Source of the DNA: a virus | Direction: 5' to 3' (one strand) | IMG/VR virus record: IMGVR_UViG_3300004369_000028 | Coordinates: 1-47,424 of that record | Length of the DNA stretch: 47,424 nt | Shown here: piece by piece, positions 14,912 through 16,513 of the stretch | Position numbering within the stretch: position 1 is the first letter of the stretch | Layout of the letters: every line of letters begins with the position of its first letter | The notes under the pieces: model-generated | Told to the model about the DNA's origin: nothing | The model's input: the letters and a program-made list of their open reading frames with translations, nothing else | Database searches by the model: none | Program-made: the position numbers and the translations under genes

Positions 14912-16513
14912 ATGGCAATTAAGATTAACGGTCAAGTCGTAATAGATGATAGCCGTAACATCACGAATGTAGGTACAGTAGATGGCAGAAATGTGTCTTC
15001 TGATGGAACAAAGTTAGATACTGTAGACACCAATGCTGATGTTACAGCCGATAATCTTGAGTCTGCACTTACTGGTTTTGGTACTATTACTTCCTTAGAA
15101 GGGTCCGATATTCTACCAGTATACGACAGTTCTGCTGGACTATGGAAAAAAGCAACTATCACAAACTCTGCCCTTGTTGGGCCAACAGGACCTACGGGTG
15201 CTACAGGCTCTAAGGGACAAAAAGGTGATACGGGCTTAACTGGCTCTAAAGGACAAAAGGGTGAGTTAGGTGACACAGGACCTACTGGACCTACAGGCTC
15301 AACTGGTGATACAGGACCTACAGGTGCTAAAGGCCAAAAGGGTGAAATAGGTGCTACTGGACCTACGGGTGCTAAAGGTAACACAGGTGATACAGGGCCT
15401 ACAGGACCTACTGGTCCTACAGGACCTACAGGTGCTAAAGGACAGAAAGGTGAAATAGGTGCCACTGGACCTACTGGACCTGATGGACCTACAGGACCAA
15501 CTGGACCTACAGGACCAACTGGACCTCAAGGTGCTAAAGGACAAAAGGGTGAAATAGGTGCCACAGGACCTACAGGATCAACTGGACCTACTGGACCTCA
15601 AGGTGCTAAAGGACAAAAGGGTGAAGTGGGTGCTACAGGACCTACAGGACCTGATGGACCTACAGGACCAACTGGATTAACAGGGCCTACTGGTGCTAAA
15701 GGTAACACAGGTGCTACTGGACCTACTGGACCTCAAGGTGCTAAAGGTCAAAAGGGTGAAATAGGTGCTACTGGACCTAATGGACCTACAGGACCTACTG
15801 GACCTACAGGACCAACTGGACCTCAAGGTGCTAAAGGACAGAAAGGTGAAGTAGGTGCCACAGGACCCACTGGTTCTACTGGACCTACAGGACCTCAAGG
15901 TGCTAAAGGTCAAAAGGGTGAAGTAGGTAACACTGGACCTACTGGACCTACTGGACCTACTGGGCCTACTGGTGCTAAAGGCCAGAAAGGTGAAGTAGGT
16001 AACACTGGACCTACTGGCGGTACAGGACCTACTGGTGCTAAAGGTCAAAAGGGTCAAACGGGTGCTACAGGACCTACAGGACCTACTGGACCTACAGGTG
16101 CTAAAGGCCAGAAAGGTGAAGTAGGTAACACAGGACCTACAGGACCTACTGGACCAACTGGACCTACAGGTGCTAAAGGTCAAAAGGGTGAAGTAGGTAA
16201 CACTGGACCTACAGGACCTACAGGACCAGCAGGACCAACGGGACCTTCAGGTGGCACAGGTGCTAAAGGTCAAAAGGGAGATACTGGTGCTACAGGACCC
16301 ACAGGTGCCTCTGGTGTGAGTGCTATTAGTGGTTTGTATTACACTGGTTATGCTGGTGGTGCTGGATTCAACGGAAACTGGGGGCCTATTAATGTTGCTC
16401 TTAGTTATAATGACTGGTTGGCCTGTGGGACAAACTACTATACATACGGTGTAAAATACAGTGAAACCACTTACACCTTGTACGCCATTAGAAAAAAATA
16501 TAGGACTTACTAA
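14912..16513 (+). CDS. collagen-like fibre protein
   Basis: 533 aa. An 89-aa N-terminal domain is followed by about 126 uninterrupted G-X-Y triplets (15179..16312) dominated by GPT and by G(A/S)K-GQK-GE(I/V). A globular C-terminal domain of about 66 aa ends the protein. Confidence 0.9.

Follow-up and report, generated by a model that had tools for sequence, protein, structure and literature searches.

A collagen-like virion fiber gene linked to predicted collagen-modifying enzymes in CRP-6-type marine phages

INTRODUCTION

Viral enzymes that modify collagen are best described in mimivirus, in which L230 is a lysyl hydroxylase and hydroxylysine glucosyltransferase, R699 is a galactosyl-hydroxylysine glucosyltransferase, R655 is GLT25-like, and L593 is a prolyl hydroxylase (PMC9546862). 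The collagens of prokaryotes and phages are considered essentially unmodified, and only mimivirus is held to modify its collagen (PMC8968730). For the human enzyme COLGALT1, D522 is the catalytic base, C412 and the UDP/Mn2+-binding acidic pair D436/D437 lie in the catalytic domain, and the peptide in the structure derives from the native collagen VII sequence GAKGEKG (PMC12987934). Genes for P4H and other 2OG oxygenases are abundant in marine phages; their role has been called cryptic (PMC9301287), or secondary metabolism has been offered as a guess (PMC2938197). Abundant phage groups of the ocean include the CRP-6 type and the T4-like cyanophages (PMC6918029).

Here we describe a locus in which a collagen-like fiber gene is followed by genes for predicted collagen-modifying enzymes. 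The window is the whole stretch of DNA analyzed, 47,424 nt (IMG/VR record IMGVR_UViG_3300004369_000028, positions 1 to 47,424), and it comes from a CRP-6-type marine tailed phage of ~47 kb. It was compared with 85 related loci (L001 to L085), which are phylogenetically nonindependent so that raw counts over them overstate support; the presence of homologues was scored by tblastn at an E value of ≤1e-4. Synteny was read in ~70 related phage contigs, those with enough flanking DNA, and the baseline for composition was a set of 136 arbitrary viral collagen-like ORFs.

RESULTS

A collagen-like fiber in the virion structural module

The fiber gene is placed between the portal gene (11742-13091) and the protease, scaffold, and capsid genes, which is the virion structural module (Table 1). 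Its product matches the Pfam collagen family at an E value of 7e-59 (195.9 bits; cutoff, 27.2) and PHROG tail-fiber families at up to 1e-116, and gp60 of CRP-6 is its syntenic homologue. Homologues of the fiber carry the annotation "putative tail fiber protein." The N-terminal domain is presumed to be the virion-attachment part, and the C-terminal tip, which in the window is similar to that of L067, is presumed to act in trimerization and/or receptor binding; the chains between them are predicted to form a trimeric triple helix. The neighboring noncollagen fiber protein contains 12 T-G-(N/D)-(V/L/I) tetrapeptide repeats, encoded at 14579-14722. Antisense and off-frame ORFs over the collagen repeat (e.g., 14932-15465 and 15677-16183, both on the minus strand) were rejected as by-products of the triplet repeat, because only the plus frame has Pfam and PHROG matches and is flanked by conserved domains.

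Table 1. Features of the fiber locus and its enzyme cassette
Feature	Position	Strand	Basis
472-aa noncollagen fiber protein, neighbor	13475..14893	+	PHROG head-decoration and tail-fiber families; homologue CRP-6 gp61
533-aa collagen-like virion fiber protein gene	14912..16513	+	Pfam Collagen PF01391, PHROG, synteny
N-terminal noncollagen domain, aa 1-89	14912..15178	+	Near-identical in window, CRP-6, L054, L055, L085, L255
Collagen domain, 127 G-X-Y triplets	15179..16321	+	Scripted count
C-terminal 63-aa noncollagen tip	16322..16510	+	Length and sequence vary among relatives
138-aa ORF, first of accessory block	16513..16929	+	Homologue at same place in L054
173-aa ORF	16930..17451	+	Invariant WHTNS...WH...R-x-(S/A)-FGF motifs; homologues in L007, L054, L065
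287-aa ORF	17402..18265	+	Same BLAST cluster as L067:2471-3460
GT8-family glycosyltransferase, 235 aa	18253..18960	+	PF01501 E 2.6e-7, 30.9 bits, cutoff 24.3; PHROG 28018 E 5e-44
Prolyl-hydroxylase-like 2OG/Fe(II) oxygenase, 188 aa from ATG	18936..19502	+	PF13640, AF2, covariation with Pro
FkbM-family methyltransferase	19475..20044	+	PF05050 E 5.5e-20; TIGR01444
Three-domain enzyme, 608 aa	20038..21864	+	Pfam, PDB sequence matches, AF2 and Foldseek
GT25 domain (COLGALT1 C-terminal catalytic domain-like), aa 1-165	20038..20532	+	Alignment to COLGALT1
PLOD/LH3-type GT domain (GGT-like), aa 181-420	20578..21297	+	PF25342, LH3 motif alignment
Lysyl-hydroxylase-type 2OG/Fe(II) double-stranded beta-helix domain, aa 430-608	21325..21861	+	LH3/L230 similarity

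Lysine is confined to the Y position

By scripted count, the longest unbroken (G-X-Y)n run covers aa 90-470. The original prediction had placed about 126 consecutive triplets at 15179..16312; that interval is in frame and holds 126, and one further triplet, GVS, extends the run to 127. All 30 Lys of the domain occupy Y and none X, where they make up 24% of Y positions, with the motif G[AS]KGQKG occurring 14 times and GAKGNT twice. All 55 Pro occupy X and none Y (45 GPT, 5 GPQ, 2 GPD, and 1 each of GPN, GPA, and GPS), and Thr fills 74 of the 127 Y positions (58%) and no X position. The recount reproduced exactly the 30 Y-position Lys, 14 G-(A/S)-K-G-Q-K-G, and 2 GAKGNT that had been predicted, together with the restriction of Pro to X in these six triplets and the filling of most Y positions by Thr; neither Lys nor Pro was spread over both positions.

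Under random placement over the 254 X and Y sites, the probability that 30 of 30 Lys fall in Y is 1.3e-10, and that 55 of 55 Pro fall in X is 1.5e-20. The viral baseline has preferences of its own (Lys, 71% Y; Pro, 83% X; Thr, 74% Y; counts for Lys of 135 in X versus 512 in Y), and against it the probabilities are ~3e-5 for Lys and ~4.5e-5 for Pro. Because the baseline shows the same preferences, the placement of Pro and Thr is the usual habit of viral and bacterial collagens. The unusual feature is the dense, strictly Y-position, paired Lys, whereas Pro in X and Thr in Y are generic. Collagen lysyl hydroxylases act on Lys in the X-Lys-Gly context.

A three-domain enzyme related to LH3 and COLGALT1

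The gene for a 608-aa enzyme lies ~3.5 to 4 kb downstream of the fiber gene. Pfam searches identified GT_PLOD (E value, 2.9e-31), Glyco_transf_25 (5e-12), and 2OG-FeII_Oxy_3 domains, and the PDB sequence matches were LH3 (1e-22), R699, L230, and COLGALT1, the collagen-lysine enzymes being followed by weak 2OG-domain matches to PiuC (E value, ~4e-3). With the AF2 model (pLDDT, 85.8), Foldseek returned LH3 (4e-24), the human GGT domain 6wfv (matched by the PLOD-type GT domain; TMt, 0.79), L230, and COLGALT1, and the top 25 PDB fold matches were all collagen-lysine enzymes. In each of the three domains, the residues for metal binding, donor binding, and catalysis do not vary among 46 homologues. 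Domain homology and conservation of the catalytic residues are clear from these alignments, and the enzyme is predicted to be a collagen lysyl hydroxylase together with two hydroxylysine-directed glycosyltransferases.

The GT25 domain scores 46.5 bits against PF01755 (cutoff, 24). Its residues C52, E75/D76, and D136 (in PVDE) align to C412, D436/D437, and D522 of COLGALT1 and are all invariant among the homologues, the first acidic residue of the pair being Glu in the phage versus Asp in COLGALT1. The domain is short (~165 aa), and an invariant R161-x-x-R164-P-S166-T167 stretch is a tentative candidate for the lid loop, which in COLGALT1 contains S569 and T571. The PLOD-type GT domain scores 109 bits against PF25342 (cutoff, 27); F-M-D249-G-Y251-D252 aligns to F-V-D-S-Y-D of LH3 with the DxxD Mn2+ site present, W282-P aligns to W-P, and D330-D331-Q332 aligns to the poly-Asp-Gln stretch, with D249/Y251/D252, W282, and D330-D331-Q332 invariant.

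In the C-terminal domain, aa 431-596 have LH3 (domain E value, 4.8e-8) and L230 (1.9e-6) as best PDB matches, and Foldseek placed the mimivirus L230 LH domain (root mean square deviation, 1.9 Å; TMt, 0.75) ahead of prolyl hydroxylases. The LH3 counterparts of H532-x-D534, H581, and K591 are its H-x-D, distal His, and 2OG-binding Arg, respectively, and the four phage residues are invariant in 46 sequences. The basic 2OG-binding residue is Lys in the phage family versus Arg in LH3, which is compatible with the wider P4H family yet differs from LH3. Hydroxylation of the Lys of X-Lys-Gly is predicted for this domain. The LH3-type order (GT, accessory, LH) was not found; the phage order is GT25, PLOD-type GT, and LH without an accessory domain, and the enzyme is an LH3 relative, not an LH3 orthologue. 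One JGI annotation labels the enzyme an LPS-biosynthesis GT25 protein, and some relatives carry the automatic, rule-based UniProt name [quoted passage not shown]

The enzyme accompanies lysine-rich fibers across phages

Of the 85 related loci, 58 have a collagen ORF with 30 or more triplets on the same strand as a near-full-length PLOD-like match and 16 nt to 5.5 kb upstream of it. These ORFs contain 44 to 157 unbroken triplets, the shortest being cut by contig ends. In the ~70 contigs suited to reading synteny, the enzyme is downstream of a collagen fiber with the sole exception of L056, which has the enzyme but no collagen gene in the 7.6 kb upstream. Among 44 nonredundant fibers (4,258 triplets), Lys occurs 1,151 times in Y and never in X, in pairs, and makes up 24 to 27% of Y positions, with the consensus G-[ASP]-K-G-Q-K-G-[EQ]. 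The combination of enzyme and fiber with Y-only Lys pairs extends to relatives 32 to 40% identical, in T4-like cyanophages and other contigs. In CRP-6, just two genes come after the fiber gene: a small ORF of chaperone size, annotated "putative tail protein," and the PLOD-like gene. The contig of the closest relative, P0002, begins at the enzyme gene and hence contains no fiber sequence.

Among phages sharing the portal gene, all 14 contigs with a Lys-rich fiber carry the enzyme, whereas both are missing from 4 to 8 contigs that extend 6 to 10 kb downstream. In L254 and L255, a fiber with the same N-terminal domain occupies the same position but has only 2 Lys and no Lys pairs, and the enzyme is absent; an HMM search of L255 was negative. 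Synteny and covariation of the enzyme genes with fiber composition are evident in these comparisons. Among the Lys-rich baseline collagens (L170, L107, L088, L191, and others, all short loci), an LH-like gene was found only in L186, a chance member of the family. The enzyme family is represented by 409 stretches in IMG/VR versus 6 MAG or SAG contigs, and no isolate genome, among 185,579 species genomes, and it is essentially confined to phage contigs, being abundant in CRP-6-type roseophages and T4-like cyanophages.

A prolyl-hydroxylase-like gene follows fiber proline content

The P4H-like protein, whose gene start follows the gene call in L206, scores 56.5 bits against PF13640 (cutoff, 27), and H105/D107/H165 and R175/S177 are invariant in 39 homologues. 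For its AF2 model (pLDDT, 92.9), the top folds with a known substrate are mostly protein prolyl hydroxylases, and its nearest solved relatives by sequence are PKHD/YbiX/PiuC-type hydroxylases of unknown substrate. In the related loci, the gene is present where the fiber has 12 to 55 X-position Pro and absent where it has 0 to 9, a pattern involving at least 4 independent gains or losses on the enzyme tree. The sisters L055 and L054 have 43 Pro with the gene and 1 Pro without it, respectively, L248 is a further loss, and the complete CRP-6 genome, with 6 fiber Pro, contains the P4H-like gene nowhere. An absolute link is ruled out by L226, with 27 X-position Pro, and by L254/L255, with 24, mostly in GPQ, none of which has the gene. 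From the fold and this covariation, the enzyme is predicted to hydroxylate X-position Pro of the fiber.

Other genes of the cassette

The 138-aa, 173-aa, and 287-aa proteins have no Pfam, PHROG, or NCBIfam matches. The 173-aa protein, which has few database homologues, may have a small 2OG-oxygenase-like fold. The cluster mate of the 287-aa protein in L067 matches Capsule_synth (PF05159) at an E value of 1.5e-5 (25.1 bits; cutoff, 20), which makes the window protein a weak candidate for a glycosyltransferase of the KpsC/KpsS sugar transferase type. The GT8 protein has a DCD motif at aa 79-81. About half of the relatives also have an FkbM methyltransferase gene next to the PLOD-like one. Elsewhere in the window, at 40262-40810, a further 2OG oxygenase is encoded.

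DISCUSSION

Proposed modification of the fiber

We consider it probable that the virion collagen stalk has coevolved with phage collagen-modifying enzymes by which its Lys would be hydroxylated and glycosylated and its Pro probably hydroxylated. The fiber and these enzymes would be made from the same late operon, and the fiber chains would be translated in the infected bacterium and modified while unfolded. The C-terminal 2OG/Fe(II) domain would turn Y-position Lys of G-(A/S)-K-G-Q-K-G-(E/Q) into 5-hydroxylysine, on which the GT25 domain would place a first sugar, galactose by analogy with COLGALT1, and the PLOD-type GT domain a second, glucose by analogy with LH3 and R699; both the identity and the order of the sugars are suggested by these analogies. 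The P4H-like oxygenase would probably hydroxylate X-position Pro, chiefly in the 45 GPT triplets. Further decoration of the glycans may come from the FkbM methyltransferase, the window-specific GT8 protein, and the Capsule_synth-like protein, and the modified chains would then trimerize and join the virion via the conserved N-terminal domain. We infer that the fiber is the substrate of these enzymes, as we do the position of hydroxylation on proline and a benefit to the phage in helix stability, hydration, protease resistance, or adhesion.

A more far-reaching version, which we offer tentatively and regard as somewhat doubtful, is a complete phage collagen pathway in the bacterial cytoplasm, in which the 608-aa fusion would build metazoan-type Glc-Gal-hydroxylysine on the G-x-K-G-Q-K-G motifs and a partner prolyl hydroxylase would make X-position hydroxyproline in Gly-Hyp-Thr, the solution of annelid cuticle. 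Against coevolution of stalk and enzymes stand the Lys placed in KGE or KGD, the Y preference of viral Lys generally, L056, the exceptions to the P4H pattern, the PKHD/YbiX/PiuC-type proteins nearest to the P4H-like protein by sequence, the shortness of the GT25 domain, the Lys in place of the 2OG-binding Arg of LH3, and the nonindependence of the related loci.

Alternative explanations

The original prediction had the composition tailored to both Lys and Thr modification, with glycosylated Thr stabilizing the helix without hydroxyproline. In a reading of this kind, O-glycosylated Y-position Thr would be the main stabilizer, as in BclA and Riftia cuticle collagen, and the glycosyltransferases of the cassette would act on Thr. 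The frequency of Thr in Y fits, as does GPT being the commonest triplet, since (Gly-Pro-Thr)10 folds only with galactosylated Thr according to work cited in PMC11923368, and the window has two extra candidate sugar transferases in its GT8 and Capsule_synth-like proteins. However, Thr in Y is generic (2,238 in Y versus 804 in X in the baseline) and equally high in relatives without an extra transferase, such as CRP-6, and GT8 is absent from all 85 related loci (tblastn, E ≤ 1e-4). Beyond the hydroxylysine-type domains, no transferase conserved with the fiber was found, and CRP-6 has none; the conserved enzyme joins a lysyl hydroxylase domain to two GT domains whose homologues act on hydroxylysine, and the covariation of the P4H-like gene with Pro argues against a helix without hydroxyproline. 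Thr as the main target is unlikely, although Thr glycosylation could coexist with Lys modification. The Lys half of the original prediction, which had pointed to the X-Lys-Gly context, has in contrast gained from the three-domain enzyme, its co-occurrence with Lys-pair collagens, and the enzyme-less control phage L255.

The Lys could also be unmodified and placed in Y for K-G-E/K-G-D interchain salt bridges and positive charge, with the enzyme acting elsewhere, for example on a different virion protein or on a glycan of the host surface. Together, 11 KGE and 2 KGD account for 13 of the 30 Lys, and each of the 11 Glu of the domain follows a Lys; such triplets are overrepresented and stabilizing in collagens of all kingdoms and of viruses (PMC11923368). 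The baseline preference of Lys for Y and the LPS-biosynthesis annotation given to the enzyme point the same way. Since KGE/KGD is classically a motif for salt bridges between chains, helix stability without modification could account for part of the Lys placement. However, 17 of the 30 Lys in the window precede G-Q or G-N, only ~29% of Lys family-wide precede G-E, and salt bridges leave the strict pairing of Lys, the all-or-none link to the enzyme gene, and the Lys-poor fiber of L255 unexplained. The two roles are compatible, since neither hydroxylation nor O-glycosylation at C5 would occupy the epsilon-amino group, and we give salt bridges as the whole explanation a small chance.

That nothing is tailored, the fiber being an ordinary phage collagen with unrelated auxiliary genes nearby, is very improbable. 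Pro in X and Thr in Y are indeed ordinary, and 2OG oxygenases whose role is unknown are numerous in marine phages (PMC2938197, PMC9301287), the window itself having the further one at 40262-40810. Against this, enzyme, collagen, and Lys pairs are linked across lineages 32 to 67% identical and are absent together in sister phages, and Pro content follows the P4H-like gene over its repeated gains and losses.

An assembly artifact, collapsed or chimeric, can practically be dismissed: although the repeat DNA is periodic and one related contig breaks exactly at the cassette, the frame is open through 533 aa, the N- and C-terminal domains are conserved, and collapse is unlikely because no 51-mer recurs in the region and 4 contigs of 20 to 50 kb encode the identical 533-aa protein. 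The DNA had been called highly repetitive, which holds for its periodicity (TRF periods of 9 to 135 nt at 63 to 84% match) but not for exact copies, the longest exact repeat being 45 nt. Copy number, suspected of being variable or collapsed, does vary between relatives, from 76 to 157 triplets among CRP-6-type contigs and from 42 to 458 in distant relatives.

Implications

Our literature search did not find a study of lysyl hydroxylation or hydroxylysine in tailed-phage fibers. A widespread phage system of the kind proposed here would revise the picture of unmodified phage collagen and provide a new outgroup for tracing how LH/PLOD and GLT25 enzymes arose. For at least this subset of the phage P4H and 2OG-oxygenase genes, the covariation described here offers a concrete, testable answer. 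If the more far-reaching version holds, collagen lysine glycosylation would be no speciality of animals and giant viruses, PLOD and GLT25 enzymes could plausibly have had a reservoir in phages during their evolution, and many of the cryptic "2OG-Fe(II) oxygenase / P4H auxiliary metabolic genes" in marine phages would serve virion maturation, not metabolism. Glycosylated collagen has not yet been made in Escherichia coli, where the human transferases express poorly (PMC9546862), and a 608-aa enzyme that would naturally work in bacteria on a short, defined substrate motif is a candidate biotechnology tool. The hypothesis is directly testable, since CRP-6 has been isolated in culture, as have the cyanophages S-CAM9 and S-PRM1.

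Comparison with known systems

The closest parallel is mimivirus, in which L230, R699, R655, and L593, homologues of the LH, PLOD-type GT, GT25, and P4H components, occur beside collagen-like structural proteins (PMC9546862); by sequence or by fold, the window enzyme matches L230, R699, and R655, among others. Mimivirus differs in being a giant virus of amoebae with separate or two-domain enzymes, whereas the phage has a single GT25-PLOD-GT-LH chain beside its presumed substrate and its system would work in the bacterial cytoplasm.

With human LH3 (PLOD3) and COLGALT1 (GLT25D1), the phage enzyme shares the same three domain families, the metal-binding and catalytic residues, and the context of Y-position Lys before Gly, and the collagen VII sequence GAKGEKG is close to the phage motif GAKGQKGE. 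In contrast to LH3 (738 aa), the phage protein lacks the accessory domain between GT and LH, and it is missing the extra noncatalytic N-terminal GT domain of COLGALT1. Its bacterial setting has no endoplasmic reticulum, a secretion signal is absent, and its identity to these enzymes is only ~16 to 24%.

The P4H-like protein has the same fold (TM, ~0.7) and HxD...H...R triad as PBCV-1 vCPH, Pseudomonas putida PPHD, Dictyostelium PhyA, and Bacillus anthracis P4H; however, by sequence it is nearest to PKHD/YbiX/PiuC, and its predicted target is X-position Pro (Gly-Pro-Thr), in contrast to the Y-position Pro of animal collagen. With the ordinary collagen fibers of phages and bacteria (PHROG tail-fiber families, Scl, BclA, and EPclA), the window fiber shares the unbroken G-X-Y repeat, X-position Pro, Y-position Thr and Gln, noncollagen flanks, and its place in the phage structural module. 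Ordinary viral fibers, as represented by the baseline set, mostly have few Lys, placed in both X and Y, whereas the fibers of the present family have Y-only Lys pairs and dedicated enzymes.

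Enzyme cassette beside a collagen-like fiber gene

The 608-aa enzyme encoded downstream of the collagen-like fiber gene is likely to hydroxylate and glycosylate the lysines of that fiber. The window covers almost the entire genome of a tailed phage of marine origin. The phage shares its gene order with Roseobacter phage CRP-6, and the two portals are 86% identical; phages of the CRP-6 type have been described as both abundant and ubiquitous in ocean waters (PMC6918029). The fiber consists of a conserved 89-aa N-terminal domain, the collagen domain, and a variable 63-aa C-terminal tip, and seven ORFs separate its gene from the next structural gene.

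Features of the phage genome and of its fiber and enzyme genes
Feature	Position	Strand	Family match or remark
DUF7178 protein	8897-9499	+	E value, 1e-45; directly upstream of the packaging genes
Terminase	10389-11741		
Portal	11742-13091		
First fiber gene	13475-14893		Between portal and protease
Tandem tetrapeptides	14579-14722	+	Within the first fiber gene
Collagen-like fiber gene	14912-16513	+	533 aa; between portal and protease
Unbroken G-X-Y run	15179-16321		127 triplets
ORF	16513-16929		None
ORF	16930-17451	+	173 aa; none; WHTNS...WH...RxSFGF motif family-wide
ORF	17402-18265		287 aa; no match itself; one homologue matches Capsule_synth
GT8 glycosyltransferase	18253-18960		
2OG-FeII_Oxy_3 oxygenase (P4H-like)	18936-19502	+	188 aa
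FkbM methyltransferase	19475-20044		
608-aa protein (PLOD-like)	20038-21864	+	Glyco_transf_25 (E value, 5e-12), GT_PLOD (E value, 2.9e-31), 2OG-FeII_Oxy_3
Protease and scaffold			Before the major capsid gene
Major capsid	25751-26731		
Tape measure	30521-32854		
J-like central fiber	33987-38006		
Replication and nucleotide-metabolism genes		Opposite	After the central fiber
2OG-FeII_Oxy_3 oxygenase (P4Hc-type)	40262-40810	-	
PhoH	41091-41810		Adjoins the P4Hc-type oxygenase
Class II RNR	42457-44355		Adjoins the P4Hc-type oxygenase

In relatives, this interval also encodes chaperones of tail fiber assembly, proteins like Gp38, and enzymes of the radical-SAM/SPASM type, which fits a locus for fiber maturation. 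One or two radical-SAM/SPASM genes of the peptide-maturase type lie between the collagen gene and the PLOD-like gene in some relatives (L054:8085-8990, L067:4352-5275, and L065:4084-5760), which suggests further fiber chemistry in those phages. The FkbM gene is found beside the enzyme gene in about half of the relatives. The 173-aa protein belongs to a family of which only three database clusters were found, and it had no matches to Pfam, PHROG, or NCBIfam models; the family motifs W-H-T-N-S, G-x-R-x-Y-Y, P-x-W-H-x-V, and R-x-(S/A)-F-G-F are all invariant and are reminiscent of a small 2OG-oxygenase-like fold. The listed GTG start of the 287-aa ORF overlaps the previous gene by 50 nt (17402-17451), and its true start may be later.

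Elsewhere in the genome, the first fiber gene encodes twelve tandem tetrapeptides T-G-(N/D)-(V/L/I), with the sequence TGNVTGNLTGNVTGNVTGDVTGDITGDVTGNVTGNLTGNVTGNLTGNV; 8 of the 12 make N-x-T sequons, and the whole protein has 20 N-x-S/T. The P4Hc-type oxygenase on the minus strand has weak similarity to the cassette oxygenase (28% identity across 57 aa), and no homologue of it was found in CRP-6.

Homology and catalytic residues of the 608-aa enzyme

A sequence search of the PDB with the 608-aa protein retrieved human LH3 (1e-22), mimivirus R699 (1.6e-12), mimivirus L230 (1.9e-6), and COLGALT1 (4e-6), followed only by weak matches to the 2OG domain of PiuC (E value, ~4e-3). An AlphaFold model built with 46 homologues (pLDDT, 85.8) has three domains (GT25, PLOD-GT, and LH) and a disordered linker at residues 170 to 177. 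Collagen-lysine enzymes account for all 25 of the best fold matches of the model in the PDB, including LH3 (4e-24), the human GGT domain (TMt, 0.79), R699, COLGALT1, and the LH domain of L230 (TMt, 0.75; rmsd, 1.9 A).

In the LH domain, H532-x-D534 and H581 align to the iron triad of LH3 and K591 aligns to its 2OG-binding Arg. In the PLOD-GT domain, F-M-D249-G-Y251-D252 aligns to the LH3 Mn2+/UDP motif F-V-D-S-Y-D, W282-P to W-P, and D330-D331-Q332 to the poly-Asp-Gln loop. The cryo-EM structure of COLGALT1 assigns uracil stacking to C412, ribose and Mn2+ binding to D436/D437, and the role of catalytic base to D522 (PMC12987934); these residues correspond in the GT25 domain to C52, E75/D76, and D136, the last within a P-V-D-E motif common to both proteins. 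All mapped catalytic positions are invariant across the 46-sequence alignment, and nothing in these sequences suggests a dead domain. In contrast to LH3 and COLGALT1, the phage protein has neither the accessory domain of the former nor the N-terminal domain of the latter; it has Lys rather than Arg in the 2OG site and Glu rather than Asp at one donor-site position, and its GT25 domain is short, with a lid loop that could not be mapped.

Composition of the collagen domain

A script recount bore out nearly all of the hand counts in the original prediction. The approximately 126 triplets counted by hand are those of a slightly shorter interval within a full run of 127. Lysine occurs 0 times in X and 30 times in Y, with 14 copies of G(A/S)KGQKG and 2 of GAKGNT; proline occurs 55 times in X and never in Y, in exactly the triplet types named before; and threonine occupies 74 Y positions. 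Under random placement, the Lys and Pro splits would have probabilities of 1.3e-10 and 1.5e-20, but the fair baseline is other viral collagens. An arbitrary draw on a pattern of 12 in-frame GGN codons only gave 120 IMG/VR loci with 136 collagen-like ORFs, in which 83% of Pro is in X and 74% of Thr and 71% of Lys are in Y. Proline in X and threonine in Y are thus ordinary. Most of the 136 ORFs contain just a handful of lysines, and the unusual trait of the phage fiber is lysine in a quarter of Y positions, with none in X and nearly always paired. A further collagen-like protein of 2,233 aa on an unrelated viral contig (L170:2661-9362) has 70 GxKGxKG motifs and 161 lysines, every one of them in Y; this 9.7-kb locus showed no PLOD-like gene and has a 599-aa ORF without a Pfam match upstream.

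Mis-assembly of the repeat, an earlier worry, is unlikely because the collagen-domain DNA is periodic but diverged (63 to 84% matches by TRF), its longest exact repeat is 45 nt with no repeated 51-mer, and the same 533-aa protein occurs on four contigs. Copy number does vary as anticipated, from 76 to 157 triplets among CRP-6-type contigs and from 42 to 458 among distant relatives. The 29.6-kb contig L235, which encodes an enzyme 83% identical to that of the window (P0002), starts 35 nt ahead of the PLOD-like gene, and the variable, repetitive fiber cassette may be a place where assemblies are prone to break.

Co-occurrence of the enzyme and lysine-rich fibers

The enzyme family is large, with more than 425 protein clusters and 409 IMG/VR stretches, and is essentially confined to phage contigs; a search of 185,579 species genomes gave only 6 MAG/SAG contigs. 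Of 85 related loci, 58 have a near-full-length enzyme match with a collagen ORF of 30 or more triplets upstream on the same strand. The two are 16 nt to 5.5 kb apart, and the collagen ORFs hold 44 to 157 unbroken triplets, with contig ends truncating the shortest ones. Across 44 nonredundant fibers (4,258 triplets; consensus, G-[A/S/P]-K-G-Q-K-G-[E/Q]-[V/T/I]), lysine occurs 0 times in X and 1,151 times in Y, and relatives with just 32 to 40% identity also keep it in Y. All 22 lysines in the 1,831-aa tail fiber of cyanomyophage S-CAM9 are in Y, as are all 124 in a 1,731-aa fiber with 458 triplets (L225:1448-6640) that adjoins P4H-like, FkbM, and PLOD-like genes. Like L225, L226 is a distant relative with an extreme fiber (L226:211-3090; 150 triplets and 80 Lys in Y, of the GTKGxKG and GDKGVKG types), which is followed by a 334-aa ORF of no known kind and then the PLOD-like gene. 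The sole enzyme-bearing locus in which no collagen gene was found, in 7.6 kb upstream, is L056 (6067-9429), where a 385-aa noncollagen fiber and a 152-aa ORF precede the PLOD-like gene; contig L065 ends too soon for a judgment.

Natural controls were found by searching from the portal gene. A Lys-rich fiber was followed by the enzyme in 14 of 14 contigs, and fiber and enzyme were missing from 4 contigs with about 9 to 10 kb downstream and from 4 more with 6 to 8 kb. The sister CRP-6-type phages L254 and L255 (L255:9654-10946) carry a homologous fiber, with the same N-terminal domain and in the same position, whose 53 triplets are rich in GPQ and GAT and contain 2 lysines and no Lys pairs; neither phage was found to have PLOD-like or P4H-like genes, with none within 10 kb and negative HMM searches for L255. 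The off-diagonals of the resulting two-by-two table of Lys-rich fiber against enzyme are, at face value, empty. Because the loci are related to one another, this co-occurrence is strong circumstantial evidence and not statistical proof.

The lysines could alternatively be placed for interchain salt bridges, a role that is real but partial. KGE occurs 11 times and KGD twice in the window collagen, with a Lys before every one of its 11 Glu, yet an acidic partner is missing for 17 of the 30 lysines and for roughly 70% of those in the family as a whole, and salt bridges leave the link to the enzyme gene unexplained. The two roles can coexist, since C5 hydroxylation leaves the amine free; the hydroxylation and glycosylation consensus of adiponectin and collectins is likewise G-X-K-G-E/D. 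Glycosylation of threonine is a less probable reading with no specific support, as Thr in Y is common in viral collagens generally. The original prediction of a domain tailored to modification of both residues thus holds for lysine, given the adjacent enzyme and the linked Lys-pair fibers, and is less probable for threonine.

Proline content and the P4H-like oxygenase

In many relatives, the 608-aa gene is directly adjoined at its 5' end by the gene for the 188-aa oxygenase. Enzyme-bearing loci that contain it have 12 to 55 X-Pro per fiber, mostly as GPT, and those that lack it have 0 to 9, with GAT or GST in place of GPT. At least four presence/absence changes can be placed on a neighbor-joining tree of the 608-aa proteins, and proline content tracks each, as in the sister pair of L055, which has the gene and 43 Pro, and L054, which has 1 Pro and no such gene; L248 shows an additional loss inside the portal clade of the window. 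The fiber of CRP-6 has 6 Pro, and no P4H-like gene was found in its complete genome. The rule is not absolute, with the exceptions of L226 (27 X-Pro) and L254/L255 (24 X-Pro, mainly GPQ), all without the gene.

In the 188-aa protein, H105/D107/H165 and R175/S177 are invariant. Among solved structures of known function, those closest in fold to its AF2 model (pLDDT, 92.9) are mostly protein prolyl hydroxylases, including P. putida PPHD, Dictyostelium PhyA, PHD2, and PBCV-1 vCPH, whereas the nearest sequences are YbiX/PiuC-type hydroxylases of unknown substrate. We regard hydroxylation of fiber proline as an even prospect. Bann and Bachinger (J Biol Chem 2000) reportedly found (Gly-Hyp-Thr)n to be stabilized by 4-Hyp in X. 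Unmodified (Gly-Pro-Thr)10, according to work as cited in PMC11923368, folds only with galactosylated Thr. The earlier suggestion of a helix stabilized without hydroxyproline is probably wrong, since the P4H-like gene covaries with the proline content of the fiber.

Proposed mechanism

We propose that the LH domain probably hydroxylates Y-Lys of the fiber chains and that the GT25 and PLOD-GT domains would then glycosylate the hydroxylysine, by analogy with Gal first and Glc second; we put forward this specific Glc-Gal disaccharide tentatively. The P4H-like enzyme probably hydroxylates X-Pro. All of these steps would precede trimerization and would use host Fe2+, 2OG, O2, and UDP-sugars. Speculatively, FkbM may methylate a sugar, and the window-specific GT8 and Capsule_synth-like proteins might lengthen the glycans or modify other hydroxyl groups. 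The phage might benefit through thermal stability, hydration, protease resistance, or adhesion.

Comparison with known systems

Public records name these proteins hypothetical, [quoted passage not shown] or "2OG-Fe(II) oxygenase." Automatic UniProt names include [quoted passage not shown] and rule-based annotation has thus touched some relatives. Iyer et al. (2010) made the general prediction that bacterial 2OG oxygenases modify collagen-like proteins and interpreted cyanophage oxygenase arrays as secondary metabolism (PMC2938197). A study of the phage system of fiber and collagen-lysine enzyme was not found in the literature searched. The closest known system is that of mimivirus L230, R699, R655, and L593 and the mimivirus collagens (PMC9546862), and LH3 and COLGALT1 are the most similar individual enzymes. 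The novel elements are the host type, a tailed bacteriophage with the bacterial cytoplasm as the workplace; the three lysine-directed domains in a single short chain; the tight linkage of the enzyme to a fiber with a short, regular predicted substrate motif; and the covariation of proline content with a P4H-like gene.
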